Positions 42,394-55,101 of a DNA stretch of 64,000 nt are shown piece after piece; the first letter of the stretch is position 1; each line of letters begins with the position of its first letter. The notes under the pieces were generated by a model. It did not search any database, was not told the DNA's origin, and worked only from the letters and a program-made list of their open reading frames with translations. The position numbers were made by a program, and so were the translations under genes. The stretch is from Escherichia phage anhysbys: the sequence record NC_052656.1; one strand, given 5' to 3'.

Positions 42394-42922
42394 TGAATAT
42401 GTATTCTTCTTTTCACATAAAGATGTGTTTAGTAATTGGTATATTGCACCCTTTACAGAAACCGAACCAGGTTACAATCAGACATTTAATTGTGTCGAAC
42501 AATACATGATGTGGCGTAAAGCTTTGCTTTTTAATGATCACAACACTGCACAGGCTATTCTGACTCATAGTTTGATACGGAAAGATGAGAAGATCCAAGC
42601 TTATTACAAACGTATGGGTAGGGCAGTGTCAGATTTTGATAACAACGTATGGGAAGAGAACCGTGAGCGTATTGTTATGCGAGGTTTATGCTTGAAATAT
42701 GTACAGAATCCAGATTTGTATGCAGACTTACACCTTTACCAATACAAAACGTTTGTTGAAGCAAGTCCTTACGATAAGGTTTACGGTATTGGAATGGGAA
42801 TGTATGAACCAGGGGTGCTAAATCCGGTCAACTGGAAAGGGCAAAATCTTTTAGGTAAATATCATAACAAACTGATCGAAATACTTTTCCCAGACAAAAT
42901 ACCGCAGAGACGATATTTGTGA
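42380..42922 (+). CDS. NADAR-domain protein (YbiA-like)
   Basis: VFFFSHKDVFSNW, CVEQYMMWRKA, DKVYGIGMG, GQNLLG align with the E. coli YbiA pattern. Confidence 0.6.
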   Translation: MRITDEYVFFFSHKDVFSNWYIAPFTETEPGYNQTFNCVEQYMMWRKALLFNDHNTAQAILTHSLIRKDEKIQAYYKRMGRAVSDFDNNVWEENRERIVMRGLCLKYVQNPDLYADLHLYQYKTFVEASPYDKVYGIGMGMYEPGVLNPVNWKGQNLLGKYHNKLIEILFPDKIPQRRYL

Positions 42923-42976
42923 TATTTTAACTTTTTTCATTTTTAGAACAAAGGCGTCACTTTGTAGCACAGAAAT

Positions 42977-43011
42977 AAGGCTCCTACAGCACCGTAGAGA
43001 GCCTATTATTT
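42977..43011 (+). terminator. Terminator after the NADAR gene
   Basis: aggctcctac...gtagagagcct stem then attattttg. Confidence 0.45.
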
Positions 43012-43390: not shown

Positions 43391-43469
43391 AAATGATAAT
43401 GATTCGCATTTAGGTTTATAAATGAGAATGATTCTTATTTAATAAAGTAAATGATAATCATTCTCATTT
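43391..43469. promoter_or_regulatory. Three Fur-box-like palindromes at 29-bp spacing
   Basis: aaatgataatgattcgcattt / aaatgagaatgattcttattt / aaatgataatcattctcattt; core AATGATAATCATT identical to the Fur box consensus GATAATGATAATCATTATC. Confidence 0.45.
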
Positions 43470-43994: not shown

Positions 43995-44103
43995 GGTATC
44001 GCCCTTTCTTTGTTGTGCGCCCTGGTTGGCGCGGTAGAAAGATGATAGCCTTTTCCTTTATATATAGCAAGCAAAAAGAAAATAAAAAAGATTGAAAAAG
44101 TGG

Positions 44104-44132
44104 TTGACGTTCCTCACCTGGTAGCGTAGTAT
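44104..44132 (+). promoter_or_regulatory. Sigma70-like promoter TTGACG-17-TAGTAT
   Basis: Upstream of 44268 gene. Confidence 0.4.
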
Positions 44133-44267
44133 TCATCTTGTCGAGGGGGGCGCGGCACAACGACAATAAACAACAGGAGGGCGCAATGTAGGACGGGCAA
44201 AGGTGAGGATCTCCATAATCCACCGTCAACCAACAAAAAACATCATTCATCACCTGGAGTTAAAATC

Positions 44268-44465
44268 ATGGCAACATTGCACATAGTAGCGAAAGCAGGA
44301 CAAATCAGCGTCGTGGTAAACGGTTTTACTGAGTTCAGTCATCCCCAGGATGATCATGAAACGGTTTTATCTTTCATTGATTCCCTGTTAGAAATGGGAG
44401 TCATTACAGAAGACCAGCACGCTACAAAGTGCAAGCGCGTTAATCAAATTGCAGGGATAGAATAA
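44268..44465 (+). CDS. Hypothetical small protein (array gene)
   Basis: 65-aa ORF. Confidence 0.45.
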   Translation: MATLHIVAKAGQISVVVNGFTEFSHPQDDHETVLSFIDSLLEMGVITEDQHATKCKRVNQIAGIE

Positions 44466-44471
44466 AAAGTA

Positions 44472-44530
44472 TTGACAACAAACAACAACCTGATAAGATG
44501 TATCACATAGGGCGGGAAGTGGTTTCCCGC
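44472..44530 (+). promoter_or_regulatory. Promoter-stem-loop cassette
   Basis: TTGACA, TGaTAAGAT extended -10, hairpin gcgggaa-gtggt-ttcccgc. Confidence 0.6.
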
Positions 44531-44555
44531 TCGTAACAGAAGAGAGATTATCATC

Positions 44556-44828
44556 ATGGCATCATATAGCGCAACAATGATCGTAGCTGGCACAACTGGT
44601 AAACCTATGAGCGGTGGCGGATCTTTCGCTAATATCAACATTGACGGGCGTTTATCCCTGGACGCAGCGATCACCGTGGCGCGGGAAACATTTAAGAAAG
44701 AATGTAAATTCAATAAACAAGATTATCTCGGTTTCGCTATTGAAAAAACCGCGCGTTTTGTTGATTATAAAAGCCCAAAAATGGTTGATACTACACTAAA
44801 AGCGCAAGATGTAGCGTTTTTGCTTTAA
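44556..44828 (+). CDS. Hypothetical small protein (array gene)
   Basis: 90-aa ORF after cassette and RBS. Confidence 0.5.
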   Translation: MASYSATMIVAGTTGKPMSGGGSFANINIDGRLSLDAAITVARETFKKECKFNKQDYLGFAIEKTARFVDYKSPKMVDTTLKAQDVAFLL

Positions 44829-44831
44829 GGC

Positions 44832-44886
44832 TTGACATTAACGAATAATTTGTTAATATGTTACATAAAGCGGGAATAGTTCCCGC
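44832..44886 (+). promoter_or_regulatory. Promoter-stem-loop cassette
   Basis: TTGACA, TAATAT, hairpin gcgggaa-tag-ttcccgc. Confidence 0.55.
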
Positions 44887-44904
44887 TATTTGTAAGGTGG
44901 TAGA

Positions 44905-45162
44905 ATGTTTTACATCAAATTAAAAGGTCACGTGATCGCGTTCAAAGATAACGCTTTTTACAGATTAGCAAAATATGCGTTAATACATCCCCACTATGTT
45001 TATATAAGGGGGCGTGATGAAATAAATATCTTTGATCAAACAACATGCGAGAACATCGAGATCCGCAAGGTTGGCGTACGTGATTATCGTACATCTTTCT
45101 ACCCTTGCAAGGATTCAGCAAGTCTTTTTAAAGTATGCCAATTGTTGAAAAAAGGTGGTTAA
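44905..45162 (+). CDS. Hypothetical small protein (array gene)
   Basis: 85-aa ORF. Confidence 0.5.
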   Translation: MFYIKLKGHVIAFKDNAFYRLAKYALIHPHYVYIRGRDEINIFDQTTCENIEIRKVGVRDYRTSFYPCKDSASLFKVCQLLKKGG

Positions 45163-45163
45163 T

Positions 45164-45721
45164 ATGGGCCGCGAATATGTGATCCAGTCTTGGGTAAAAC
45201 ATGAAGCAGATGATCCGCGCATCGTTCCCGATCATCTTATCGATGAATCCACGGGATATAGCGGTGAGCAAATAGGTAACAGATTAGCACGTAGTAACGG
45301 CAACGTAAAAGCGCGTTATGTGCGCCCTGGTTGGCTGGCAAATGGTAACGCTGATTTATCCAGTGCGGAAGATGCGAGCGACGGCGCGAAAGATAATCCT
45401 TTGTACAAAATTGATCCGGCTTTTCGTGTCCTGGATGAATACCCCAGCAAGATAGCGGCGCTTGATGAAGCTCTGGAAAGTAAGCGCATCACCTGGACCG
45501 CTTACAACATGGCAAAAAACGTACTTGATGGTAAATTGATTCAAGCCGAAAGAAAATTAGCCAAAATTGCAGCCATAGCCCAGGAGGAAGACGAGGAGAC
45601 AACGGAAGAGGAAGAGTACGAAGAGATCCCGCCGTTGTTGTGTGTTGATGCTTTTCCTGATTATCAGCCGACAGAGGAAGAAAAAAGGATCGCACTAGAA
45701 AACTTTGAAAATAGTCTTTGA
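45164..45721 (+). CDS. Hypothetical protein with highly acidic C-terminal region
   Basis: EEDEETTEEEEYEEIPPLL ... EEEK. Confidence 0.5.
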   Translation: MGREYVIQSWVKHEADDPRIVPDHLIDESTGYSGEQIGNRLARSNGNVKARYVRPGWLANGNADLSSAEDASDGAKDNPLYKIDPAFRVLDEYPSKIAALDEALESKRITWTAYNMAKNVLDGKLIQAERKLAKIAAIAQEEDEETTEEEEYEEIPPLLCVDAFPDYQPTEEEKRIALENFENSL

Positions 45722-45774
45722 CATATCGCCGCCACTGGCATAATATTTACCACGTAGGGCGGCAATGGTGCCGC
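45718..45774 (+). promoter_or_regulatory. Promoter-stem-loop cassette
   Basis: TTGACA-17-TAATAT, hairpin gcggca-atgg-tgccgc. Confidence 0.6.
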
Positions 45775-45803
45775 TCATAGTGAAATTATGCAAGAGGTTT
45801 ACA

Positions 45804-45899
45804 ATGATTAATAAAGAAAATAGCTTGACGGTTGGAACGATTAACGCTATCATTTTCGCCGTTCCATTTTGGGTTGTAGTAGCGGCTATTATTTTCTAA
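45804..45899 (+). CDS. Small hydrophobic peptide (31 aa)
   Basis: RBS caagaggtttaca ATG; own cassette. Confidence 0.35.
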   Translation: MINKENSLTVGTINAIIFAVPFWVVVAAIIF

Positions 45900-45908
45900 A
45901 AAATATTC

Positions 45909-45969
45909 TTGACAACGTTTTTTAATCTGATAAGATGTATCACATAGGGCGGCGGAATACTTCCCCGCC
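45909..45969 (+). promoter_or_regulatory. Promoter-stem-loop cassette
   Basis: TTGACA-16-TAAGAT, hairpin ggcggcggaa-tac-ttccccgcc. Confidence 0.55.
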
Positions 45970-45989
45970 AAAACAAAAAGGGTAACACA

Positions 45990-46352
45990 ATGAGCAAGCA
46001 AATTAATACTATCATGTTTAATCTGGTATCTTTCCGCGACGATATGAAAAATTTACCACGTGAAACGGTTGATATTCATGTTTCAGCTTATCGCGCCCTT
46101 ATTGACATGTTACCGCTAAAACGTGATCAATATGCCGCTAACACGATGCTTAATGCTATGCTTAAAAAGATGATTCAAACGGATCTCACCCTAGCGTATG
46201 AGTATCAAGGGCGCTTATATGCAACTTATAACAAGGCGGTACCTGGTCTGGGAAGTACCGAAGAGTTGCACGGCTTAAACCTGGATCAAAACACTTGGGA
46301 TAGTATGCGCCGCGTTATGGTATGGGCCGAAAGCGGTAAAATTTACGAATAA
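45990..46352 (+). CDS. Hypothetical protein (array gene)
   Basis: 120-aa ORF. Confidence 0.5.
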   Translation: MSKQINTIMFNLVSFRDDMKNLPRETVDIHVSAYRALIDMLPLKRDQYAANTMLNAMLKKMIQTDLTLAYEYQGRLYATYNKAVPGLGSTEELHGLNLDQNTWDSMRRVMVWAESGKIYE

Positions 46353-46358
46353 AAACGG

Positions 46359-46417
46359 TTGACACTGTTTAAACTTCTGGTATAGTTTACCACATAGGGC
46401 GGGAAGTGGTTTCCCGC
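46359..46417 (+). promoter_or_regulatory. Promoter-stem-loop cassette
   Basis: TTGACA-16-TATAGT (TGg extension), hairpin gcgggaa-gtggt-ttcccgc. Confidence 0.6.
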
Positions 46418-46440
46418 CAACAATGAAAAAGGTTATCATC

Positions 46441-46806
46441 ATGGCTATTAATATTAATGTTTCCGCTTATGCTACCCTGGCTGCCACGGCTAAAATTGAA
46501 TTGTCCAGCATTGAGGCGGTGCACATTAGCGCCCGTCGCTGGTTTCAACAGTCTTACGGTAACACATATTTTTCTTTAATGGTTGACGTTGAGATCGGCG
46601 GTAAACTGATCGAGGTGGTTAACGTTCCGTTTCAATATGGCTATGGTGATCATTTTGATACCGTCGCCCTGGAAGAATTTAGCAAGGTTATTAATATGGA
46701 AGGTAAAGAGTTTTCACGCGGCGCGTATCTTTCCCGTTTTTGCCGTGACAATGGGATCACTGTATACAGTCATGCGAGCGATGTTAAACGTAAAAAAGAT
46801 TTATAA
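46441..46806 (+). CDS. Hypothetical protein (array gene)
   Basis: 121-aa ORF. Confidence 0.5.
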   Translation: MAININVSAYATLAATAKIELSSIEAVHISARRWFQQSYGNTYFSLMVDVEIGGKLIEVVNVPFQYGYGDHFDTVALEEFSKVINMEGKEFSRGAYLSRFCRDNGITVYSHASDVKRKKDL

Positions 46807-46812
46807 AAAGCA

Positions 46813-46871
46813 TTGACAGCACGAATAAAAAGAGTAAACTGTATTACATAGAGAGCGGGAACACTTCCCGC
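46813..46871 (+). promoter_or_regulatory. Promoter-stem-loop cassette
   Basis: TTGACA-16-TAAACT, hairpin gcgggaa-cac-ttcccgc. Confidence 0.55.
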
Positions 46872-46895
46872 CTCACTGAAAAAGAGAGAAAAATC

Positions 46896-47135
46896 ATGGC
46901 TAAATCTAAAATGTACAACGGTCACAAAAACAAAACTCATTGGAATGTAAACCTTTGGATTAATAACGATGAATCGTTATACCGGTTGGCCCAAGATTTT
47001 ATTAACGCTAATGCTAATCGTAATGATGCGGCGCGGGATATGATGCTTTTTCTGGAACAAACTGGACAAGATAAAACGCCAGACGGTTTCAAATATAGCA
47101 CTACTGCGATCCGTGCCGCGATGGTTGGAATGTAA
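46896..47135 (+). CDS. Hypothetical small protein (array gene)
   Basis: 79-aa ORF. Confidence 0.5.
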   Translation: MAKSKMYNGHKNKTHWNVNLWINNDESLYRLAQDFINANANRNDAARDMMLFLEQTGQDKTPDGFKYSTTAIRAAMVGM

Positions 47136-47144
47136 TAAAAACAG

Positions 47145-47203
47145 TTGACAACGTTTAAAATTAGTGTAAGATGTATCACATAGGGCGGGAAGTGGTTTCC
47201 CGC
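47145..47203 (+). promoter_or_regulatory. Promoter-stem-loop cassette
   Basis: TTGACA-16-TAAGAT, hairpin gcgggaa-gtggt-ttcccgc. Confidence 0.6.
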
Positions 47204-47225
47204 CAAAACAGAGAGATTAAAGATT

Positions 47226-47453
47226 ATGGCTATCAATATTGTTCGCGTATCTGGCACCGTTGGCACTTCCCAGGTCATTGCCGTTGTAACAAACAAAAAG
47301 ATTAATGATGTATGTGAGATCTTGAATAAGTGGGCTGTTGCTAATTTTGGGGAATATGCAAGCGTTGAGTACATCGAATCCTACCAGGTGCCAACCATCA
47401 GCCTAACCGATCTCAACGTTGATCGCCTGTTATGCCTGGACGAATTAATCTGA
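47226..47453 (+). CDS. Hypothetical small protein (array gene)
   Basis: 75-aa ORF. Confidence 0.5.
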   Translation: MAINIVRVSGTVGTSQVIAVVTNKKINDVCEILNKWAVANFGEYASVEYIESYQVPTISLTDLNVDRLLCLDELI

Positions 47454-47463
47454 AAAAGATTGT

Positions 47464-47520
47464 TGACACCGGAAAGAAAAAGAGTAAACTGTATTACGTA
47501 GGGCGGCAATGGTGCCGCTC
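47464..47520 (+). promoter_or_regulatory. Promoter-stem-loop cassette
   Basis: TTGACA-16-TAAACT, hairpin gcggca-atgg-tgccgc. Confidence 0.6.
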
Positions 47521-47543
47521 ACAACAGAAGAGAGATTATTACG

Positions 47544-47759
47544 ATGGCCAATATCCGCACACTGTTAAAAAATGCAAGTCAAGTTTTATTTTCAGATGAC
47601 GAGTATTTCAATAAAGACATTACAGGCGTAAAAAATCTTAAAGATGTAAAGGATGTGATAGGTATTCGCGGATCTTTACGTAAAGGTGACTACTACGGCA
47701 ATAAAGTACAATATAAATTAAATCAGTCTTATGATTTTACTTTGACAATTATTTCATAA
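47544..47759 (+). CDS. Hypothetical small protein (array gene)
   Basis: 71-aa ORF. Confidence 0.5.
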   Translation: MANIRTLLKNASQVLFSDDEYFNKDITGVKNLKDVKDVIGIRGSLRKGDYYGNKVQYKLNQSYDFTLTIIS

Positions 47760-47764
47760 AACCG

Positions 47765-47827
47765 CTTGCAATCTTAATAAAATAAAGTAAACTGTATTAC
47801 ATCAAGGCGGCGGAATGGTCCACCGCC
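47765..47827 (+). promoter_or_regulatory. Promoter-stem-loop cassette (TTGCAA -35 variant)
   Basis: TTGCAA-17-TAAACT, hairpin ggcggcgga-atgg-tccaccgcc. Confidence 0.5.
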
Positions 47828-47851
47828 TAACAAAGAGAAGAGGAAAACACC

Positions 47852-48019
47852 ATGATCACTTTCGCTACCCGTGAAGCCGCTCGCAACGTTGCCCGTAAAG
47901 TTAACGCCGCCAACCTGGGCGCTACGTTTAAAGCACCTGTAAAAGATGAATCAGGAAAATGGATCTTCCCTGGTCTGCGTCACGCTGATAAGCTAGGCAC
48001 TTTAAGCCTTAAAAAATAA
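47852..48019 (+). CDS. Hypothetical small basic protein (55 aa)
   Basis: RBS agaggaaaacacc ATG. Confidence 0.4.
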   Translation: MITFATREAARNVARKVNAANLGATFKAPVKDESGKWIFPGLRHADKLGTLSLKK

Positions 48020-48022
48020 TCG

Positions 48023-48060
48023 TTGACTTTTCGTTATAGCGCCTTATAATGGGCGCTATA
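48023..48060 (+). promoter_or_regulatory. Consensus promoter TTGACT-16-TATAAT embedded in a DNA palindrome (operator-like)
   Basis: tatagcgcc TTATAAT gggcgctata inverted repeat brackets the -10. Confidence 0.5.
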
Positions 48061-48093
48061 GAGAAGAGAAACCACTACTGACAAGGAAACACC

Positions 48094-48315
48094 ATGATCA
48101 CTTTCGCTATTGTCGCCGTTGTTGCTGGTCAAGTTTACGTAAACGATACATTCACCACAGAAGACAAGGCCGCAGGAGATATAACCGCCGTTTACAACGA
48201 GTGCAAGGCAGTAGAAAGGATGTTAGCGCCTTGTATGTTAATGAGTGAACGCCAGGACGGGATAACAGTGTTTACTAACATTGAGACAGGGTACCAAATG
48301 GTAGTAACAAAATAA
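48094..48315 (+). CDS. Hypothetical small protein (array gene)
   Basis: 73-aa ORF. Confidence 0.45.
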   Translation: MITFAIVAVVAGQVYVNDTFTTEDKAAGDITAVYNECKAVERMLAPCMLMSERQDGITVFTNIETGYQMVVTK

Positions 48316-48318
48316 AGC

Positions 48319-48375
48319 TTGACACGGATTTAATTTTCAGTAAACTGTTACACGTAGGGCGGGAATAGTTCCCGC
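48319..48375 (+). promoter_or_regulatory. Promoter-stem-loop cassette
   Basis: TTGACA-16-TAAACT, hairpin gcgggaa-tag-ttcccgc. Confidence 0.6.
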
Positions 48376-48393
48376 TAAAAAGAGAGAAAAACC

Positions 48394-48747
48394 ATGAAAG
48401 CACAAAATGCAATTAAAGAGTACATCCTTGCCGCTATCGATTTTAATGATTACGGTATTACAACCGAAAAAGAGAAGATCGCGGAATTGATGCGCCGTTT
48501 TAATTCCGAGTACTGGTACCCTGATAACCAATCACGTTTTAATTATAGTATTGTTAAAGCACTTGCATCATGGTTACAAGGTTTGCCATCAGATATTAAT
48601 ATCGCTTTCGAATATTGGGAAATTGATCGCTTGTTAACATCCTGGGGATACATTAAAGAGAATAGCAGCGATGATAAAATCCAACGAGAAAGGGAAAATT
48701 ATTGGCTTTATATTGCAGGCGTGATCCTTGCTTGCTCTTATGAATGA
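48394..48747 (+). CDS. Hypothetical protein (array gene)
   Basis: 117-aa ORF. Confidence 0.5.
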   Translation: MKAQNAIKEYILAAIDFNDYGITTEKEKIAELMRRFNSEYWYPDNQSRFNYSIVKALASWLQGLPSDINIAFEYWEIDRLLTSWGYIKENSSDDKIQRERENYWLYIAGVILACSYE

Positions 48748-48753
48748 TAAACC

Positions 48754-48806
48754 TTGACAATTTTACAAAACAGTTTAAATTAATAATATAGCGGCAATGG
48801 TGCCGC
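48754..48806 (+). promoter_or_regulatory. Promoter-stem-loop cassette
   Basis: TTGACA, AT-rich -10, hairpin gcggca-atgg-tgccgc. Confidence 0.5.
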
Positions 48807-48826
48807 TCATATAAAGAGGAAACAAA

Positions 48827-48973
48827 ATGAATACATCTAATCGCGCAGAAAAAATCCAATCTTCCAAGATCCGCAAGGCCTGGAACGAGGAAGTGATCCG
48901 CAAAGGCGACAAGCGCAATAAAACAAAGCGCGGGAAGAGTGACAAATATAATTGGATGGATTTAGAGGATTAA
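48827..48973 (+). CDS. Small basic protein (48 aa)
   Basis: RBS aaagaggaaacaaa ATG; followed by terminator. Confidence 0.4.
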   Translation: MNTSNRAEKIQSSKIRKAWNEEVIRKGDKRNKTKRGKSDKYNWMDLED

Positions 48974-48980
48974 CATAACA

Positions 48981-49007
48981 AGGGCGCACCAAGCGCCCTT
49001 TCTTTTT
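48981..49007 (+). terminator. Rho-independent terminator (same sequence as 53865-53890)
   Basis: agggcgc-accaa-gcgccct then tttcttttt. Confidence 0.7.
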
Positions 49008-49028
49008 ACATGTAGAGGATAAACAAAG

Positions 49029-49214
49029 ATGACTTTAAGCGAGCTTAAAACAGCCTACAACGCAACGTTAAAAATAGCCGTGCGTTACCGTGATGCGTAC
49101 GGTTTTATCGCGCAGGGCGTGATCCTGGGCTTTTCTGACGATGGTTTGATCTATGTTGATGCACATTATAACAAGGTAAAACCTGAAAACGTCATTAGCA
49201 TAAAATATCTTTAA
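49029..49214 (+). CDS. Hypothetical small protein (array gene)
   Basis: 61-aa ORF. Confidence 0.45.
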   Translation: MTLSELKTAYNATLKIAVRYRDAYGFIAQGVILGFSDDGLIYVDAHYNKVKPENVISIKYL

Positions 49215-49220
49215 AAGTGG

Positions 49221-49280
49221 TTGACACCATAACCGGACCTGTTAAACTGTATTACATCAGGCGGGGAATAGTTCCCCACC
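49221..49280 (+). promoter_or_regulatory. Promoter-stem-loop cassette
   Basis: TTGACA-16-TAAACT, hairpin ggcggggaa-tag-ttccccacc. Confidence 0.55.
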
Positions 49281-49299
49281 ATACAAAAAGGTAAATATT

Positions 49300-49506
49300 A
49301 TGATCACCGCAAAACAAGAGAAAATCATTATCGACGTTGCAGCCGTTGCCGCTATTGCTATTATTGGATCTTATTATGATACCCGTTTCCCGTCGGCTAT
49401 GCATGAGATCGCCGCCGTTGCATCAGTTGGCGTACTGTTTTACGTTGGTAAACGCTATTTATCACCAATGATTAACAAGCTGACACCGTGGAAAAATAAA
49501 GGTTGA
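49300..49506 (+). CDS. Small membrane protein (array gene)
   Basis: Hydrophobic IIIDVAAVAAIAIIG. Confidence 0.45.
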   Translation: MITAKQEKIIIDVAAVAAIAIIGSYYDTRFPSAMHEIAAVASVGVLFYVGKRYLSPMINKLTPWKNKG

Positions 49507-49558
49507 TCCTGTTTTATATTGTGTTATAGTTATCGTGTAGGGCGGCAATGGTGCCGCG
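49503..49558 (+). promoter_or_regulatory. Promoter-stem-loop cassette (TTGATC -35 variant)
   Basis: TTGATC-16-TGtTATAGT, hairpin gcggca-atgg-tgccgc. Confidence 0.5.
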
Positions 49559-49577
49559 CCCCTTTGAGGATGCAATC

Positions 49578-49862
49578 ATGAGTAAAGCTAACACCGTGCT
49601 AATGTTTTCCCTGATTAATGATCCCGCTTACTTGTCCAACATGACGCAGGAGGGTAACACATTAACGGCAACATTCACCAATAAGCTTGACCGGGTGATC
49701 ATCATCTCACTGAAAACAGTTAGTAAAGGCTTTTACTCGTTAGCTTATCATTGGATCACCGATACCGATGAGACAAGCCAGGACTATAGCGCCCCTTTCC
49801 CTGAATCAATGGCACGGGAGATCATCGCCGCCGTTGTAAATGATGGTTTGTTTACTGCATAA
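49578..49862 (+). CDS. Hypothetical protein (array gene)
   Basis: 94-aa ORF. Confidence 0.5.
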   Translation: MSKANTVLMFSLINDPAYLSNMTQEGNTLTATFTNKLDRVIIISLKTVSKGFYSLAYHWITDTDETSQDYSAPFPESMAREIIAAVVNDGLFTA

Positions 49863-49880
49863 AATAATTTAGAAAAAGGC

Positions 49881-49937
49881 TTGCAATCATTTTGAGATAG
49901 TGTATATTTAATTCATAGGGCGGCGGGAATAGTTCCC
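49881..49937 (+). promoter_or_regulatory. Promoter-stem-loop cassette (degenerate)
   Basis: TTGCAA-16-TATATT, hairpin gggaa-tag-ttccc. Confidence 0.4.
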
Positions 49938-49960
49938 AAAGCAAACGAGAGGATTACACG

Positions 49961-50080
49961 ATGAGCAAGTACACAGTAGAATACACGGTAGAAAATCCGG
50001 CAGTATCCGAAGGTAAAAAGATGACATTTGCCATCAGTATAATCGCTTTCGTTGTCACTATCTTATCAATCATCTTATAA
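49961..50080 (+). CDS. Small membrane peptide (39 aa)
   Basis: RBS gagaggattacacg ATG; hydrophobic C-terminus. Confidence 0.35.
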   Translation: MSKYTVEYTVENPAVSEGKKMTFAISIIAFVVTILSIIL

Positions 50081-50090
50081 GGTGCACACC

Positions 50091-50252
50091 ATGAAAACAA
50101 CAGATATTATCAAAGAGATCGCCCATGCCGCTGGCGTTGAGATCGAGGAAGTGATCGCGCTCAATCTTACAGAAAACGATCTGCGCAACTATGAAGCGGA
50201 AAGCGTGAAAGCAAGCGGCGCGGTCCTGGTATATGATCCGGCTAACAAGTAA
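50091..50252 (+). CDS. Hypothetical small protein
   Basis: 53-aa ORF. Confidence 0.35.
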   Translation: MKTTDIIKEIAHAAGVEIEEVIALNLTENDLRNYEAESVKASGAVLVYDPANK

Positions 50253-50261
50253 GGGGATAAC

Positions 50262-50372
50262 ATGAATCCGAAAGATATGCAAGCATGGAAAGGGTACGAC
50301 GATCTAAGCGCCTTGCGCAATAAGTCAAGCCGTAACCTTAGACGGTTGGAAGCAAAGAAAAAGAAAAAATAG
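50262..50372 (+). CDS. Small basic peptide (36 aa)
   Basis: RBS aaggggataac ATG. Confidence 0.3.
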   Translation: MNPKDMQAWKGYDDLSALRNKSSRNLRRLEAKKKKK

Positions 50373-50373
50373 T

Positions 50374-50430
50374 TTGACAAGTCCGCCTAGTCTGATAATA
50401 TGTATCTTGTAGGGCGGCAATGGTGCCGCT
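50374..50430 (+). promoter_or_regulatory. Promoter-stem-loop cassette
   Basis: TTGACA-16-TGaTAATAT, hairpin gcggca-atgg-tgccgc. Confidence 0.6.
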
Positions 50431-50450
50431 CACAAGAAGAGAGAAAAATC

Positions 50451-50735
50451 ATGAAAATCACAAAAAGCCTAACTAATTATGCAGCACGTCGCGGATTATG
50501 TTTAACCGTTGAAAACTTAGGGAAAGAAGACTTTTTGTGTTTTTGGGAGCTTGAAAATGATTGCGAGTGGATGTTTTCTTATTCTATCTGCGAAGATCAA
50601 AACGGTTGTTTGTTAACCTGGCGCGGTAATATCTATTTACCGGAAGAAATTAAAGAAGAGTTACCAGGTACGATCATGACAGAGAGACAGCTTAAGGAAA
50701 TGATTAATTTTGTAGGGCAAAACATTAAAAAATAA
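50451..50735 (+). CDS. Hypothetical protein (array gene)
   Basis: 94-aa ORF. Confidence 0.5.
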   Translation: MKITKSLTNYAARRGLCLTVENLGKEDFLCFWELENDCEWMFSYSICEDQNGCLLTWRGNIYLPEEIKEELPGTIMTERQLKEMINFVGQNIKK

Positions 50736-50736
50736 T

Positions 50737-50797
50737 TTGACAGCACGCAAACAACGTAGTAAAGTTTACCACATAGGGCGGCGGAATGGTCCACCGC
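50737..50797 (+). promoter_or_regulatory. Promoter-stem-loop cassette
   Basis: TTGACA-17-TAAAGT, hairpin ggcggcgga-atgg-tccaccgc. Confidence 0.55.
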
Positions 50798-50820
50798 TCA
50801 CAACAGAAGAGAAACAAATC

Positions 50821-50991
50821 ATGATCCCGACTATGTTTTATGTATCGCGCAAAGGTCACAATATTTTTTGGTCTGAAGATTTAAATGAAGCTATGACGTT
50901 TGCCCGTGATCGTGTTGCTATCGGTGGCGTTAACATCACCGTAACCGATGAAAATGGCATTGAATACTATAACGGCGACGATGAAGAATAA
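50821..50991 (+). CDS. Hypothetical small protein (array gene)
   Basis: 56-aa ORF. Confidence 0.45.
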   Translation: MIPTMFYVSRKGHNIFWSEDLNEAMTFARDRVAIGGVNITVTDENGIEYYNGDDEE

Positions 50992-50999
50992 TTAATGAG

Positions 51000-51020
51000 G
51001 CGGGGGAGTATTCCCCGCCG
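51000..51020 (+). promoter_or_regulatory. Promoterless intergenic stem-loop of the cassette type
   Basis: ggcggggga-gta-ttccccgcc, no -35/-10 upstream, no U-tract. Confidence 0.4.
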
Positions 51021-51038
51021 TCAATAAAGAGGTAAATC

Positions 51039-51308
51039 ATGAAAATATCATTGGACGTTGCAATCAAGGCCATCGAATCCGGTTACATCCTGGTAAAAGA
51101 TGATAAGGCTAAAATAGTGCATCATGTTAACAAGGAAACAGGCGAAAGCATGATCACATATAAAGCCGCCTACTTTCTCCAATCAGTAGCAGATCCGCGC
51201 GTACAACGCCAGGTTATGGCGGCTATTGCTAAAAAATTATGTGCTTTACAGGGTACAAGTTTTAACGAGATCGCCCCGTGTTTTGAGTGGTCAAGCTTGA
51301 AAAAATAA
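51039..51308 (+). CDS. Hypothetical protein (array gene)
   Basis: 89-aa ORF. Confidence 0.5.
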   Translation: MKISLDVAIKAIESGYILVKDDKAKIVHHVNKETGESMITYKAAYFLQSVADPRVQRQVMAAIAKKLCALQGTSFNEIAPCFEWSSLKK

Positions 51309-51309
51309 T

Positions 51310-51371
51310 TTGACAACAATTATAAATCGGGTAGAATGTATTTCGTAGGGCGGGGCAATAAAGCAACGCCC
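51310..51371 (+). promoter_or_regulatory. Promoter-stem-loop cassette
   Basis: TTGACA-16-TAGAAT, hairpin gggcg...cgccc. Confidence 0.5.
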
Positions 51372-51389
51372 ATTAATGAGGGTAGAATC

Positions 51390-51494
51390 ATGTTAGAGAA
51401 AATTTTCACGGTTGTAATAGTGGGCCTGGCGTTATCGGTTGGAGTGGTTGCAACTATGGCTAACATGATCCTATCTTCCCACGGTATCGGTTAA
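51390..51494 (+). CDS. Small membrane peptide (34 aa)
   Basis: MLEKIFTVVIVGLALSVGVVATMANMILSSHGIG. Confidence 0.35.
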   Translation: MLEKIFTVVIVGLALSVGVVATMANMILSSHGIG

Positions 51495-51504
51495 GGTGAA
51501 ACAA

Positions 51505-51720
51505 ATGATCACGAACAAAACAGGCAAAACGGAATTTTTACGCGGCTTACAAGTTGGTAAGCCTGAGATCTGGCATTGCACGAAGTCCGCGCATAATGAA
51601 ATGAAAGATTTTACCGCTACTTTACAACGTGTTAAAATATCTATCACACAGAAAAAAGCCTTGTTAGTAGTAGAAAACGAGATCCCGCAAACTATTATTA
51701 TTGTCGAGCGTACAGCATGA
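51505..51720 (+). CDS. Hypothetical small protein
   Basis: 71-aa ORF with RBS aaggtgaaacaa. Confidence 0.45.
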   Translation: MITNKTGKTEFLRGLQVGKPEIWHCTKSAHNEMKDFTATLQRVKISITQKKALLVVENEIPQTIIIVERTA

Positions 51721-52103
51721 AAACAGAAATCATTATTGAAATCATCAACGGCTATAAAGAAGCCTTTATTTTTGCTGAATCAGCAAGGGATCATGAAGGT
51801 AATTTTATTGATAACTTAGACGATTATGATTTTTCTCCTAGCGCGGATCAACGGATCGCACAGGATGTAACAGCCTTTATTAATGCTAATCTTGCCGCTA
51901 TCTCTGAGGCAATGAGCGACGGCGCAACAGCCAACCAGATCGGGAATGATTTACATTTTACCCGTAACGGTCACGGCGTAGGCTTTTGGGATCGCCCTGA
52001 AATATACACCACTAACACGGCGAACCGCCTAACCAATGCAGCTAAGTTTATGCCGAACGTGTCGGCTTACGTTGGTGAAGATAATTTTATTTATATTGAA
52101 TAA
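51717..52103 (+). CDS. Hypothetical protein
   Basis: 128-aa ORF, ATGA overlap. Confidence 0.5.
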   Translation: MKTEIIIEIINGYKEAFIFAESARDHEGNFIDNLDDYDFSPSADQRIAQDVTAFINANLAAISEAMSDGATANQIGNDLHFTRNGHGVGFWDRPEIYTTNTANRLTNAAKFMPNVSAYVGEDNFIYIE

Positions 52104-52109
52104 AAAGTA

Positions 52110-52166
52110 TTGACACAGATCGCCAGTGTGCTAATATTTACCACGTAGGGCGGCAATGGTGCCGCT
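52110..52166 (+). promoter_or_regulatory. Promoter-stem-loop cassette
   Basis: TTGACA-16-TGcTAATAT, hairpin gcggca-atgg-tgccgc. Confidence 0.6.
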
Positions 52167-52187
52167 CCCCGAAAAAGGTAAAACATT

Positions 52188-52379
52188 ATGAAAACTATCA
52201 GCTACCTGGAATCGAATAACATGTTTTTTGCGCCCGTTGATGAAATCATCGAAGCATTAAACAACGAGGAAGGGATCAATGGTTTATCTTATAGCCAGCT
52301 TTTAGGAATGGTTGCAGCAAATGAGGAGCTTGCTTACTATGTTGAAAATTTTGATGAAGCTGTAATCTTTACAAAATAA
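52188..52379 (+). CDS. Hypothetical small protein (array gene)
   Basis: 63-aa ORF. Confidence 0.45.
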   Translation: MKTISYLESNNMFFAPVDEIIEALNNEEGINGLSYSQLLGMVAANEELAYYVENFDEAVIFTK

Positions 52380-52382
52380 TCC

Positions 52383-52439
52383 TTGATCTAATCTCTCAGA
52401 TAACTTATATTTAATGCGTAGGGCGGCAATGGTGCCGCC
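52383..52439 (+). promoter_or_regulatory. Promoter-stem-loop cassette (TTGATC -35 variant)
   Basis: TTGATC, TTATAT, hairpin ggcggca-atgg-tgccgcc. Confidence 0.5.
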
Positions 52440-52457
52440 GATAATGAGGAAAACAAA

Positions 52458-52757
52458 ATGGAAACTATCGCTATTGTTACCGTAGAAAAACTGGTTGTTG
52501 GTGATGTATTCGCGTTAATGGTGCCTAACAGCAGCAAGCTGGGCGCTTATGAAGTAATGGATCATAAAAATGAATCATTTGGCGACGGTTGCACAATGGC
52601 GGTAAAATCTTTAAAGGATGGAATCATCCGCCAGGCTAACTGGCACAAAGGGAATCAAGTCGGTTTAATATCAGCTAATTTCTTGCCAGAAGAGCAAACA
52701 TTAGATCAACTATCAGGCGGTAAGACGTTAGCCGAACTACTGGAAACAGCGATCTAA
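52458..52757 (+). CDS. Hypothetical protein (array gene)
   Basis: 99-aa ORF. Confidence 0.5.
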   Translation: METIAIVTVEKLVVGDVFALMVPNSSKLGAYEVMDHKNESFGDGCTMAVKSLKDGIIRQANWHKGNQVGLISANFLPEEQTLDQLSGGKTLAELLETAI

Positions 52758-52765
52758 TCGACAAG

Positions 52766-52781
52766 GGGCGGCAACGCCCCC
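52766..52781 (+). promoter_or_regulatory. Promoterless intergenic stem-loop
   Basis: ggggcg-gcaa-cgcccc. Confidence 0.4.
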
Positions 52782-52810
52782 ATTAAACGCAATAGGAAGA
52801 GGATAGACAC

Positions 52811-53095
52811 ATGAAAAAGATGATCGCAGTAGTTGCCCTGGTTGTTGGTATTAACGCGCCTGTAATGGCGAAAGAGTTGCCAGAATCCATCACGTTAACC
52901 GATATTAACGCAGTGAATCGGATCGGTGTTAATTATCGCCTATGCCTTGCCGCTAAAACTTTCCAGGACGGCACAACAGAGTACTACGGATTCGAGGGTA
53001 TCCGCTGCGGTGAGCTTTCACGCGACCTTAAGGAAGATCCAGACCTTGAGGCCATACCGATGACCGTAAACGGTAAAGCCCACGTAAACCGCTAA
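52811..53095 (+). CDS. Secreted small protein
   Basis: Signal peptide MKKMIAVVALVVGINAPVMA. Confidence 0.5.
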   Translation: MKKMIAVVALVVGINAPVMAKELPESITLTDINAVNRIGVNYRLCLAAKTFQDGTTEYYGFEGIRCGELSRDLKEDPDLEAIPMTVNGKAHVNR

Positions 53096-53097
53096 CC

Positions 53098-53232
53098 ATG
53101 AGAAAGGTAATCATCACAATGGGGATCGTAGTAGCAACGCTGGCGCTTATCCCTTTCATGGTTGAATATGTGCTGATTAATGTTGTCCTGGTAGTCAGTG
53201 ACCTATTGGAAACGGTTGGCACCTGGTTTTAA
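53098..53232 (+). CDS. Small membrane peptide (44 aa)
   Basis: Hydrophobic; followed by weak terminator. Confidence 0.35.
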   Translation: MRKVIITMGIVVATLALIPFMVEYVLINVVLVVSDLLETVGTWF

Positions 53233-53406
53233 GATAATAAATAGGGCTTGCAATAGTCCTATTTTTTGTTATACTTATTGAACGGGCGGCACCTGGGAGC
53301 AGGGGAAGATAATCACCGGAAGACCCCGCTATATATTGATAACTAACGCCTATCAAACAACAAAACATCAAAGGAACAAACTATCAAATCTTTACAATTC
53401 TACCTA

Positions 53407-53467
53407 TTGACACCGGATCACGCTTACATTATTATTTATCACGTAGGGCGAGCAATACAGCAAGCCC
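53407..53467 (+). promoter_or_regulatory. Promoter-stem-loop cassette (degenerate hairpin)
   Basis: TTGACA-17-TATTAT, then gtagggcgagcaatacagcaagccc. Confidence 0.45.
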
Positions 53468-53484
53468 ACAAAGAGGAAAAGAAG

Positions 53485-53853
53485 ATGAGCAAATCAGCAA
53501 TTAAAGCAGTTGAAAAAGCGCAAGAAGTGATCGCAACGTCTACCACTGGCGCAAAGGTTAATCTGATCGGTTATCTGACAGATGAAACTATCCGTAAAAA
53601 TTGGCGTAATGCTGATTTACTGGCTTGCTTATTGATTAATAGTGTCGCTAATGCTTTCCAGTGTGAAACAGCCGAGAGCCTGGAGGAAAACTTGTTTGAT
53701 AATATGGATCAAGCCATTGAAACCTATATACAATCAAACCTGGATAGCTGGAACAGTAAAACATGGCCAGACAGTTTACGCGATACAACTGATCAACTGA
53801 TCCGCCTTGCCGTGATGGTTGAACGCGATAACGTTTACAACAGCACAAAGTAA
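53485..53853 (+). CDS. Hypothetical protein (last array gene)
   Basis: 122-aa ORF with RBS aagaggaaaagaag. Confidence 0.5.
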   Translation: MSKSAIKAVEKAQEVIATSTTGAKVNLIGYLTDETIRKNWRNADLLACLLINSVANAFQCETAESLEENLFDNMDQAIETYIQSNLDSWNSKTWPDSLRDTTDQLIRLAVMVERDNVYNSTK

Positions 53854-53864
53854 GATTATACAAG

Positions 53865-53890
53865 GGGCGCACCAAGCGCCCTTTCTTTTT
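53865..53890 (+). terminator. Rho-independent terminator closing the array
   Basis: gggcgc-accaa-gcgccc then tttcttttt. Confidence 0.7.
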
Positions 53891-54923
53891 GCCCGAACAA
53901 TGTTGATAGCTTTCGCCTATGAAAAACCGACACAGAACAAAATTGAATAAATCGCGGTATCGAGCTAATCAACCATTAAACGAATAACCATACCTCCCAG
54001 GGTAACAGGCTGTTAGAGAGCCATTTATAGCGGTTAAAATCGATCAACAACCAACAACAAACCATCAAAAACACCCTTTTACCTCCTTTCTAGTGCAATG
54101 ATAACCATTATCATCTACCCATGATTATCTATGCAATATAAGCGCATAATTATAATGTTGATAATAGTTCGCAACAACTAACCAACAAACAACATAAAAC
54201 AAGAAGCAAACTAATCATAATCAAAGGAATAATAGCAAGATGATTGATAACGACAAACAATCAAACCATGATGAATACTAAGCAAGATAACGATAACACG
54301 ACAAAACAACCAACTAACGAACAATAACAAACGAAACCATTAAAATAATAACTATTGCCATAATAGTGACTGAATGAAATCATTACAAAACGAATCATTC
54401 CCAGGATCATCATTAGCACGCTATGCCGGACACATAGCGAGCTAATAATAAGCCAACTACACCCCAACAATCATAACCATCGGTGATGGTTATTTCTTGT
54501 TACTGCGTAGCTTGCAATAATTGCAAGCGTAATTACGCTTACACTTATTGCGCTGGCTTATTATTAGCATTATATGTAATTACCAAGATCATAACATTAA
54601 CGCAATAACAATAATCATTGTAATGGTTACAATATGAAATCATTGGCAAGATGAATAATTGCACGTAGCAACATGAGCGAATAGCGACAGGTTGCATAGT
54701 GTGCACATAATAGAATAAAAGTCAATAATTTTGGGGGCGAAATGTTACCGCCACAGGCGGGAATGTTGAGCACTAAGAAAAGAGATAAACCTTAATCATG
54801 GGGGCGTAAATATCCGCAGGATTGCCAACGGCGATCCGGTAGGATGTTGAGCATCTTCTCTTAAACGTAAATAAAATCAGAAAATTCTTGATTTATTTTA
54901 GTTTTTATGTTAATAAACGTTTA

Positions 54924-54943
54924 AATAATAATCATTCTCATAT
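54924..54943. promoter_or_regulatory. Fur-box-like palindrome
   Basis: aataataatcattctcatat. Confidence 0.35.
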
Positions 54944-55101
54944 GAATAATAGTCTGCTTGTCATGAGCGGGATTAGTTGACATTGTTCCGTCATATGATG
55001 AGGTTGCCAACCTATTGATAAATAAGTGTTTGTGTGATTTATAATCAAGTGGCCCACCTTGTCGCTATGTTGGCATGAGCCTTGCATAAGTCATTGAATA
55101 C

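Follow-up and report, generated by a model that had tools for sequence, protein, structure and literature searches.

Between 44.1 and 53.9 kb of a 64,000-nucleotide stretch of DNA from Escherichia phage anhysbys (NC_052656.1), 31 small open reading frames (ORFs) of 31–185 amino acids (aa) follow one another on the plus strand in 9.8 kb, and an intergenic unit of about 90 bp is repeated between them: a sigma70-like promoter, a GC-rich hairpin in the predicted leader, and a ribosome-binding site. The whole stretch is called the window below, and all coordinates are positions in it. We favour, with a probability of about one half, the reading that these units are portable early-gene cassettes, functionally similar to the promoter-early-stem-loop elements (PeSLs) of T4-type phages, in which the stem-loop has been moved into the 5' leader, where it would protect or insulate the mRNA. 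The region would then be a hyperplastic early-gene array built from one repeated expression cassette; the early timing of its transcription is suggested by the sequence.

The window belongs to a Phapecoctavirus (phAPEC8-like) coliphage. The 10-kb region is 95–97% identical to Phapecoctavirus genomes, in agreement with the original prediction, made from the sequence alone, that the phage is not T4-type; its close relatives in this region are vB_EcoM-P3322, Mt1B1_P17, tuntematon and ukendt (subfamily Stephanstirmvirinae).

A manual and scripted inventory gives 23 sigma70-like promoters (44104–53435), mostly TTGACA-16/17-TAnnnT and seven of them TGn-extended. They have A-rich 5' flanks, and the upstream genes' stop codons lie 0–10 nt before the -35 box or overlap it. 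In 20 of the 23, the core of a GC-rich hairpin starts 10–12 nt past the -10 box, in most units after the leader (A/G)TAGGGCGG; the hairpin ends 15–27 nt ahead of the ATG. The predicted free energy is -11 to -17 kcal/mol in 19 of these 20 units, and only -7.8 in the unit that we call u49881 after its first position. The promoters at 44104, 48023 and 53248 have no leader hairpin. The motif TAGGGCGG itself occurs 14 times in the window, always on the plus strand (44508–52426), where 0.43 copies are expected by chance. The expectation of at least 20 units with one architecture, in which promoter, leader hairpin and ribosome-binding site form a module, is thus borne out. The original prediction also placed each gene behind its own promoter: this holds for 22 of the 31 ORFs, while the other nine have none. 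It was right about two hairpins that precede a Shine-Dalgarno sequence without any promoter (51000–51021 and 52765–52780), and about a single minus-strand copy before terC (22637–22562).

The element is confined to the array, apart from the one copy before terC. Of the roughly 48 promoter-like sites that the window has outside the array, one is followed by a hairpin at such an offset, namely the minus-strand terC copy, and good promoters of replication and metabolism genes (at 36941, 35895, 34855, 15717 and 8194, all on the minus strand) have short leaders devoid of hairpins. A covariance model of leader and hairpin, run with filters off, finds its placements in the window only at 44.5–53.5 kb (plus strand) and 22573–22605 (minus strand), and no match in the remaining 93 kb of Mt1B1_P17. 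This model was seeded from one stem class only, since MAFFT gave no structural alignment of the two classes. A weak hit of the same model lies at 32709–32742 (plus strand; E about 0.15, 13.9 bits), where the local genes are on the other strand.

The leader hairpins are not intrinsic terminators, because none of them is followed by a U-tract (the sequences past the stems are CUCACAACAG, CCAACAAUG and CUAAAAAGAG). A terminator scan of the plus strand flags 48980–49000, 53239–53264 and 53862–53884 only, and passes over every leader hairpin, which speaks against the objection that they might be ordinary terminators of the upstream gene. The bona fide intrinsic terminators at 48980 and 53862 split and close the array.

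The leader hairpin as a predicted RNA structure

It is the whole intergenic unit that is repeated. Its 5' part consists of an A-rich tract that includes the stop codon of the upstream gene, the -35 and -10 boxes, GTATCAC or TTACCAC, and a purine followed by TAGGGCGG; the 3' part consists of the hairpin, a CUCACAACAGAAGAGAGA-like spacer with the Shine-Dalgarno sequence, and the ATG. The purine-rich initial transcribed motif of the cassettes is (A/G)UAGGGCGG, next to which come the GC hairpin of 7–10 bp and an unstructured spacer rich in A and G. A conserved pyrimidine-purine step (CAC followed by A or G) lies 7–8 nt past the -10 box, and E. coli RNA polymerase is expected, from promoter geometry, to start at such a step. 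We infer that the host polymerase would start at the conserved purine, so that each early mRNA would open with about three (3–4) unpaired nucleotides and then the hairpin. Folding of the predicted messages gives 3–4 unpaired nucleotides, the hairpin and an open, purine-rich Shine-Dalgarno region, with z-scores of -1.7 to -3.0 per unit. The hairpin is therefore found where it had been predicted, inside the putative transcript, at about +4 to +25.

The instances to which the covariance model was applied come from nine loci, drawn from seven phages plus this window. The 102 plus-strand instances contain 33 distinct hairpin cores, every one of which folds. The base of the stem, GCGG/CCGC, is uninformative regarding covariation because it never varies; the fifth pair is G-C in 37 cases and C-G in 21, and G-C, G-U and A-U all occur as the closing pair. 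In the stored alignment, 99.2% of the cells are paired and both sides change in three of the eight modelled pairs; the covariation score is 0.22 versus 0.107 in shuffles, and none of 500 shuffles reached it. It is important to note that the hits on the reverse strand of the palindrome were removed for the counts of cores and G.U pairs but retained in the covariation alignment, which is moreover fitted to the model and made of paralogues, so that covariation gives modest support. More weight can be given to other observations. On the sense strand, G.U pairs outnumber A.C pairs by 27 to 3. GCGG and CCGC stand 16–20 nt apart, the arms measure 6–10 bp, and the loops show no conserved sequence (AUGG, GUGGU, UAG, UAC, CAC, UGU). 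In u51310 and u53407 the conserved leader takes part in stems of other registers (GGGCG/CGCCC and GGGC/GCCC, respectively).

Comparison of orthologous positions gives the same picture: the sequence of the hairpin differs and it folds every time. The hairpin of the gene starting at 44556, for instance, is GCGGGAAGUGGUUUCCCGC here, GGCGGCGGAAUGGUCCAGCCGC in Mt1B1_P17 and ukendt, GGCGGCGGAAUGGUCCACCGC in phAPEC8 and GGCGGCAAUAGUGCCGC in phi92, and the same gene may bear three to four hairpin types across phages. The C.A mismatch of u47766 is a U-A pair (T-A in DNA) in phi92, and the promoterless stem at 52765–52780, GGGGCG/CGCCCC, is replaced by GGCGG/CCGC(C) at the orthologous site of phage FV3. 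The promoterless units made of hairpin and Shine-Dalgarno sequence are conserved among relatives. As judged from these comparisons, it is the predicted structure rather than the sequence that is kept and, across lineages, it is a hairpin at the putative message start that persists. The original claim that the stem is maintained by compensatory changes is partly supported: many alternative stems exist at orthologous sites and in other lineages, but true covariation is limited, with few independent events and changes on both sides in the three pairs mentioned above only.

Gene exchange at the cassettes and their occurrence in other phages

Compared to Mt1B1_P17, which is about 96% identical, the 10-kb region shows eight insertions, deletions or replacements; there are three events with respect to ukendt and two with respect to phAPEC8, hence 13 altogether. 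By our count, about 21 of the approximately 24 junction endpoints fall in cassettes, promoterless hairpins or terminators, with overlaps of 16–70 bp. Several lie in the part of the cassette formed by leader, hairpin and ribosome-binding site (46411–46448, 48074/48089, 52165/52404 and 53433–53450), others in the promoterless hairpins (51045 and 52765–52780) or in the closing terminator (53860–53884). In Mt1B1_P17 and ukendt, which lack ORF 52188–52379, a chimeric element joins the 5' part of u52110 to the 3' part of u52383. The type of hairpin ahead of the same gene is also swapped between relatives. One event, at 50251/50253, is not between two cassettes. The idea that the cassettes act as PeSL-like recombination seams for the gain, loss and replacement of genes is well supported by these genome comparisons.

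The cassettes occur in several lineages: Phapecoctavirus, Justusliebigvirus, the Vequintavirus FV3 and a 368-kb jumbo phage, which fits the earlier suggestion of a transferable cassette system. FV3, which belongs to another subfamily, shares 51346–51718 at 88% and 52761–53335 at 83% identity, and the shared segments are all bounded by cassettes; the early region is otherwise about 70% identical in one shared gene. ORF161 and ORF162 of FV3 bear cassettes of the Phapecoctavirus type, and a subset of its early promoters is followed, at the same offset, by unrelated stems such as GGGGCAA/UUGCCCC or GGGCC/GGCCC. A DNA-level search with the polymerase gene returned no Vequintavirus among the matches listed (30 of 305 records). 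The unrelated 368-kb jumbo coliphage vB_EcoM_E9.1 contains, near the left end of its record (2446–12766), an array of about 35 small genes with the same arrangement of promoter, leader hairpin and Shine-Dalgarno sequence, but with its own leader (GUUUUACAU) and stems. In E9.1, nine of 13 strong promoters have a hairpin at +4 to +6, with GGGGAGAA/UUCUCCCC, GGGGAAA/UUUCCCC or GAGAGCGGGAA/UUCCCGCCUC as its stem, free energies of -12 to -15 kcal/mol and z-scores of -1.7 to -4.2.

A scan of IMG/VR with a pattern that combines promoter and motif found multi-copy occurrences only in relatives of 97–153 kb; the single hits that were inspected (L029 and L044) are due to chance. A host origin of the element was rejected, since a search of 5,426 E. 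coli genomes gave no match to the unit.

Possible functions of the cassette

In the mechanism that we propose, the 5'-terminal hairpin would hinder the 5'-end-dependent attack of the message by RppH and RNase E, and it would keep the ribosome site open whatever the ORF that follows; in our view the leader hairpin most likely protects or insulates the mRNA. The cassette being the longest sequence common to otherwise unrelated small genes, homologous recombination between cassettes would shuffle, delete and import genes that are already equipped for expression, which is the role proposed for the PeSLs. If this mechanism is correct, it is a second, independent solution to the problem that PeSLs solve in T4-like phages, where a pool of small accessory genes that turns over quickly has to stay expressible wherever a gene is inserted, and the position of the hairpin in the 5' leader predicts early phage messages that withstand 5'-end-dependent decay. 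The presence of the layout in four phage groups, together with cassette-bounded segments at 83–88% identity, points to a common currency for the exchange of early genes, probably for host takeover or anti-defence, among therapeutic coliphages. The module of about 90 bp would also be of practical use as a compact, strong expression element insulated from its context.

PeSLs are composite cassettes of early promoter and stem-loop, found in hyperplastic regions, which mediate modular shuffling (Arbiol et al. 2010, PMC2839356; Comeau et al. 2014, PMC4122927), with crossovers mapped between the -10 box and the ATG (PMC2839356). Like the PeSLs of RB49/phi1, PST and nt-1, the units described here are conserved composite intergenic cassettes of about 70–100 bp, with a stop codon in an AT-rich tract, a strong sigma70-like early promoter, a GC-rich stem-loop, a Shine-Dalgarno sequence and the ATG in this order; they are concentrated in a region of small ORFans, and the indels and replacements between close relatives also cross over between the -10 box and the ATG. 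On the contrary, in all five PeSL subclasses the stem-loop comes before the transcription start (upstream of the -35 box, over it, between the boxes, over the -10 box, or just before +1) and has been interpreted as a terminator (PMC2839356), whereas 20 of our 23 units have the hairpin within their own predicted transcript, behind a conserved leader motif and devoid of a U-tract. The only unit here with the geometry of a T4 PeSL is u48023, in which an 8-bp stem (48036–48060, ATAGCGCC/GGCGCTAT), conserved in phAPEC8 and ukendt, holds the unit's own -10 box TATAAT in its loop. The phages differ too, PeSLs being from Tevenvirinae and the present cassettes from Stephanstirmvirinae, Vequintavirinae and a jumbo phage.

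Regarding the hairpin itself, the closest parallels are the 5' stem-loops of ompA and papA, where a stable hairpin lies a few nucleotides from the 5' end (a predicted end in our case) and the ribosome-binding region after it is accessible; what is expected there is protection from 5'-end-dependent attack by RNase E, an enzyme that is much slower to cleave RNAs whose 5' end is base-paired (PMC3997798). The ompA and papA leaders are single, experimentally tested cellular leaders, unlike the approximately 21 copies found here on phage genes with a predicted start site. Promoter-proximal RNA hairpins also occur in phage early transcripts as the nut sites (boxA-boxB) of lambda and the put sites of HK022, which have conserved features of loop or structure, act on the processivity of RNA polymerase and are present once or twice per genome. 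Unlike these, the leader hairpins have variable loops, no boxA-like partner and about 21 copies. A nut or boxB site of the lambda type was rejected on the grounds that the loops differ among the 33 cores, and that an Rfam scan of 42–57 kb (E≤1) returned nothing but one chance snoRNA hit. The morons of lambdoid phages are small accessory genes with their own promoter (and terminator), added between resident genes. No flanking cassette is common to them, and their insertion is attributed to illegitimate recombination, unlike the present genes, for which a common cassette supplies the homology.

Part of the cassette had been seen before. Clusters of sigma70-type early promoters among short ORFs were described in rV5 and in the Certreviruses CB7, CR3, CR8 and CR9 and, in the available parts of these descriptions (PMC3606486, PMC7344957), they have sigma70-consensus promoters, an A-rich upstream tract and a region of short hypothetical ORFs, like the cassettes, but are described up to the -35 and -10 boxes only, without a leader hairpin. 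In these same parts, the words stem-loop and hairpin are absent from PMC7344957, and stem-loop refers only to terminators in PMC3606486. In the GenBank record of phAPEC8 (JX561091), the -35 and -10 boxes are annotated as a "host dependent promoter (MEME)" and a second annotation, "putative promoter determined with PHIRE", covers the 20-mer (A/G)TAGGGCGGCAATGGTGCCG. Since this record already shows the motif, the repeat as a sequence is no new sighting, but we found in the literature no description of the leader hairpin, of its position in the transcript or of its role as a recombination seam. The annotation of such motifs as PHIRE promoters should be corrected.

Several observations weigh against the idea of protective, portable cassettes. 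Three unpaired nucleotides are at the upper edge of what is compatible with protection by a 5' hairpin, and RppH can act on two to three unpaired nucleotides; Emory, Bouvet and Belasco reportedly placed the limit at about 2–4 unpaired nucleotides in 1992. A generic hairpin would not need the degree of conservation seen in the stem base GCGG/CCGC and the leader AUAGG, which could reflect recognition by a protein or the concerted evolution of paralogous cassettes. Few independent events underlie the covariation, and the alignment that shows it was fitted to the model. Junctions in intergenic regions are also favoured by selection against the disruption of genes. Some orthologues have no cassette (in phi92, and the E9.1 gene 4980–5324), so that the cassette is dispensable for individual genes. 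We found in the literature no transcriptome or map of transcription starts for Stephanstirmvirinae or Vequintavirinae. Last, T4 PeSL stem-loops with no obvious U-tract were reported to terminate transcription efficiently (PMC2839356).

The excess conservation is an argument for another role of the leader and hairpin, that of an RNA tag bound by a phage or host protein which would control the array transcripts jointly (by coordinated shut-off, translational repression, targeted cleavage or antitermination, for example) rather than protect them passively. The leader (A/G)UAGGGCGG (AUAGGGCGG) and the stem base are nearly invariant over the 102 instances in nine loci, beyond what pairing needs, and the element is limited to one gene class. 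We consider such a tag possible but rather unlikely, since the loops are not conserved and the length of the stem varies, u44832, u48754, u51310 and u53407 use other leaders or registers, and FV3 and E9.1 have unrelated stems at the same position; besides, no boxA-like partner motif was seen, the neighbouring ORFs that were scanned include no candidate binding protein, and the invariance can also stem from recent gene conversion among cassettes. A wider version of this idea, which we regard as doubtful to a similar degree, is that at least three unrelated lineages (Stephanstirmvirinae, Vequintavirinae and jumbo phages of the size of PBECO4) share an exchangeable immediate-early standard, whose leader hairpin is a tag read by a factor; the tag might, for example, exempt early mRNAs from RNase E decay stimulated by the phage or shut them off together, and genes would travel between lineages as cassette-flanked units. 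A scan of ten flanking ORFs against PHROGs for an Srd-like or RNA-acting factor returned only proteins of unknown function; gp11 of rV5 is reported to be Srd-like in PMC3606486. Still less probable, in our opinion, is that the hairpins are attenuators or terminators which insulate the cassettes from upstream transcription, as claimed for T4-type PeSLs. The stem-loop of the RB49/phi1 PeSL does lower the expression of a downstream lacZ about as much as rrnB T1 (PMC2839356), u48023 has the genuine geometry, and the presence of a promoter on most array genes makes sense if read-through is blocked. However, a terminator at this place, beyond the promoter of the same unit, would cut short that unit's own messages too, no hairpin has the U-tract that the terminators at 48980 and 53862 have, nine genes rely on read-through from upstream, and the promoterless hairpins precede genes that need it.

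It is unlikely, to about the same extent as attenuation, that the hairpin has no role in RNA and is a recombination substrate or scar, a palindrome that promotes exchange and is homogenised by gene conversion. Indel junctions inside elements, chimeric elements and paralogous copies that are often identical within one genome speak for this explanation, but it does not account for the excess of G.U over A.C pairs on the sense strand, for the different stems that restore pairing at orthologous sites, for the fixed offset from the -10 box and distance to the ATG, for the persistence of hairpin and Shine-Dalgarno units without a promoter, or for the same geometry with unrelated sequence in the jumbo phage. 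An inverted repeat at +4 to +25 with invariant half-sites GCGG/CCGC is also at the classical position of an operator, where a dimeric repressor could shut off early promoters; this is very unlikely, as the half-sites are spaced by 16–20 nt with arms of 6–10 bp, the G.T "pairs" would be mismatched half-sites on DNA, promoterless copies exist, and other lineages have different arms. PHIRE reports any over-represented 20-mer, and we give almost no credit to the idea that the 20-nt motif is a phage-specific promoter, as in the annotation JX561091, perhaps read by a T7-like or modified RNA polymerase. It is true that TAAGATGTATCAC-ATAGGG resembles TAATACGACTCACTATAGGG, and that the block TAAGATGTATCAC-ATAGGGCGG (44494–44515 and equivalents) matches about 16 of the 23 positions of the T7-group sequence TAATACGACTCACTATAGGGAGA with one gap. 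But the critical CACTATA core is one base short, the motif always lies 7–8 nt past a near-consensus sigma70 -10 box, inside the predicted transcript, and there is no RNA polymerase among the ten largest ORFs of the window, nor is one listed in the annotation of Mt1B1_P17. The resemblance is probably a coincidence, given that no phage RNA polymerase gene was seen, and the T7-like promoter was rejected on these grounds. The literature on related phages agrees with this: Certrevirus CB7 has no RNA polymerase gene (PMC7344957), rV5 is treated as a user of the host holoenzyme (PMC3606486), and the wider rV5-like group is described as dependent on modified or unmodified host RNA polymerase (PMC7344957, PMC3606486).

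The individual units, their genes and the surrounding genome

The units of the array are described here in the order of the plus strand, on which all of them lie, with the ORFs that follow them; some minimum free energy (MFE) folds span more than the core of the hairpin. The first promoter, u44104 (TTGACG-17-TAGTAT, 44104–44267), has a leader of about 135 nt without the standard hairpin, whose fold is no better than that of shuffles (z=+0.98), and precedes ORF 44268–44465 (65 aa); in phAPEC8 and ukendt the same gene has a standard GGCGGCAATGGTGCCGC leader instead. The cassette u44472 (44472–44555), with -35 at 44472–77, a TGn-extended -10 at 44494–99, the leader CACATAGG and a hairpin at 44510–44532 (-15.5 kcal/mol), precedes ORF 44556–44828 (90 aa). 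Next come u44832 (44832–44904; hairpin 44869–44887, AGCGGGAATAGTTCCCGCT, variant leader CATAAAG), ORF 44905–45162 (85 aa) and ORF 45164–45721 (185 aa), which has an acidic C-terminal part and no promoter of its own; then u45718 (45718–45803; hairpin 45757–45776, GGGCGGCAATGGTGCCGCTC), whose -35 box overlaps the stop codon of the upstream ORF, and ORF 45804–45899 (31 aa). The proteins of this segment match phrog_23268, 8099, 17947 and 16605, all of unknown function.

The following segment begins with u45909 (45909–45989; bulged hairpin 45948–45969) and ORF 45990–46352 (120 aa), followed by u46359 (46359–46440; hairpin 46398–46418), which has the recombination junction 46411–46448 with respect to Mt1B1_P17, and ORF 46441–46806, whose 121-aa product is 78–83% identical to proteins of jumbo coliphages. 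The stem type of u46813 (46813–46895; hairpin 46851–46874, GAGAGCGGGAACACTTCCCGCCTC), which precedes ORF 46896–47135 (79 aa), also exists in E9.1. The left edge of u47145 (47145–47225; hairpin 47184–47204; ORF 47226–47453, 75 aa) is a junction of the replacement in phAPEC8. The cassette u47463 (47463–47543; core hairpin 47501–47520, MFE fold 47498–47522), whose 93-bp unit matches 152 phage records, precedes ORF 47544–47759 (71 aa), and u47766 (47766–47851; -35 TTGCAA, hairpin 47805–47828 with its one C.A mismatch) precedes ORF 47852–48019 (55 aa). These six proteins match phrog_7352, 6246, 871, 13850, 12266 and 13689, again of unknown function. The 71-aa ORF 47544–47759 (phrog_12266) is named "phosphoribosylpyrophosphate synthetase" in the GenBank records of tuntematon, ukendt, REC and others, which is almost certainly a propagated mis-annotation.

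The promoter u48023 (TTGACT-16-TATAAT, 48023–48093), with its junction 48074/48089 versus Mt1B1_P17, precedes ORF 48094–48315 (73 aa); u48319 (48319–48393; hairpin 48358–48376) precedes ORF 48394–48747 (117 aa), and u48754 (48754–48826; hairpin 48790–48807, short leader ATATAG) precedes ORF 48827–48973 (48 aa). The terminator at 48980–49010, an 8-bp GC stem followed by a T-run, divides the array in two. Beyond it are ORF 49029–49214 (61 aa), u49221 (49221–49299; hairpin 49260–49280) with ORF 49300–49506 (68 aa), u49503 (49503–49577; -35 TTGATC, hairpin core 49541–49558) with ORF 49578–49862 (94 aa), and u49881 (49881–49960; -35 TTGCAA, weak hairpin 49920–49942) with ORFs 49961–50080 (39 aa, membrane), 50091–50252 (53 aa) and 50262–50372 (36 aa). 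All the proteins from 48094 to 50372 match PHROGs, the sole annotated one being phrog_10979, "membrane protein".

In the last part, u50374 (50374–50450; core hairpin 50413–50431, MFE fold 50407–50435) precedes ORF 50451–50735 (94 aa), and u50737 (50737–50820; hairpin 50776–50799) precedes ORF 50821–50991 (56 aa). The promoterless hairpin GGCGGGGGAGTATTCCCCGCC and its Shine-Dalgarno sequence (51000–51038; hairpin 51000–51021, MFE fold 50992–51027), which form the boundary of a replacement versus Mt1B1_P17, are followed by ORF 51039–51308 (89 aa), and u51310 (51310–51389; hairpin 51348–51371) by ORFs 51390–51494 (34 aa), 51505–51720 (71 aa) and 51717–52103 (128 aa). ORF 52188–52379 (63 aa) is flanked by the partners of its deletion, u52110 on the left (52110–52187; core hairpin 52149–52166) and u52383 on the right (52383–52457; -35 TTGATC, hairpin 52422–52439), the latter preceding ORF 52458–52757 (99 aa). 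The second promoterless hairpin, GGGGCGGCAACGCCCC, with its Shine-Dalgarno sequence (52765–52810; hairpin 52765–52780), has a junction overlap of 16 bp versus Mt1B1_P17 and precedes ORF 52811–53095 (94 aa, signal-peptide-like N-terminus), after which comes ORF 53098–53232 (44 aa). A terminator-like hairpin (53239–53264) overlaps the promoter u53248 (TTGCAA-16-TATACT); the feature extends to 53406 and includes about 130 nt of non-coding sequence with no significant fold. The stretches 44140–44267 and 53276–53406, of about 130 nt each and the second without an ORF, share GGGCG(C)GGCAC; the long leaders of u44104 and u53248 were rejected as non-coding RNAs, given folds no better than shuffles and no Rfam match. 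The array ends with u53407 (53407–53484; hairpin 53446–53467), which contains the junction 53433–53450 versus Mt1B1_P17 and ukendt, ORF 53485–53853 (122 aa) and the terminator at 53862–53894, a near-duplicate of that at 48980, with the junction 53860–53884.

The small proteins are not as novel as the original prediction had it: 28 of the 30 that were scanned fall in existing PHROGs, of unknown function except for the membrane protein. There is no Pfam match among the ten largest array proteins, and a sequence search of the PDB with four array proteins gave none either. The two ORFs without a PHROG, 51039–51308 and 52188–52379, are both among the genes that vary between close relatives. Roles of the small proteins in host takeover or anti-defence are a conjecture.

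The outlying cassette (22562–22637, minus strand; TTGACA-16-TAAGAT, leader CACATGAA, hairpin GCGGGGAATAGTTCCCCGC) precedes the TerC-family gene 22561–21587, the only gene of the window outside the array to have a promoter-hairpin cassette. This gene is part of a tellurite-resistance-like cluster on the minus strand (18262–22561), with TelA at 18262–19374, TerC at 21587–22561 and three ORFs of about 170–197 aa in between. The large ORFs of the window encode a family-A DNA polymerase, a primase-helicase, NrdD, a UvrD-like helicase, TelA and TerC. In the DNA polymerase gene (4000–6800, minus strand), many close relatives match only 74% of the stretch, in two to three pieces, and one record annotates a polymerase intein, which suggests a variable insertion in this gene among relatives.

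The array begins past a strand switch, and it probably adjoins an end of the genome, because homology to a terminal repeat starts about 1 kb past its end: 54874–55134 shares about 76% identity with the right direct terminal repeat, of 343 bp, in the annotation of phi92. In the jumbo phage vB_Ec-M-J, a feature called "Direct Terminal Repeats" in the annotation covers the homologue of one array gene. The blocks 37000–43000 and 55400–64000 also consist of small plus-strand genes, but there the genes are closely spaced or overlap and have no promoters or hairpins of their own. Records of about 140–150 kb labelled "Campylobacter phage" (MG065650, MG065645, MG065689 and others) are 96% identical to the coliphage array, and these host labels look doubtful. 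Last, we note that clusters of palindromes resembling Fur boxes flank the array on both sides, in AT-rich non-coding DNA (43392–43468, 54097–54115, 54924–54939 and 55103–55121). The Fur-like core AATGATAATCATTATC, with up to three mismatches, has 15 matches versus 1.8 expected; these could be sites for the host Fur or operators of a phage protein. The cluster upstream of the array belongs to repeats spaced by 29 nt, and the terminal repeat of phi92 has a perfect core.

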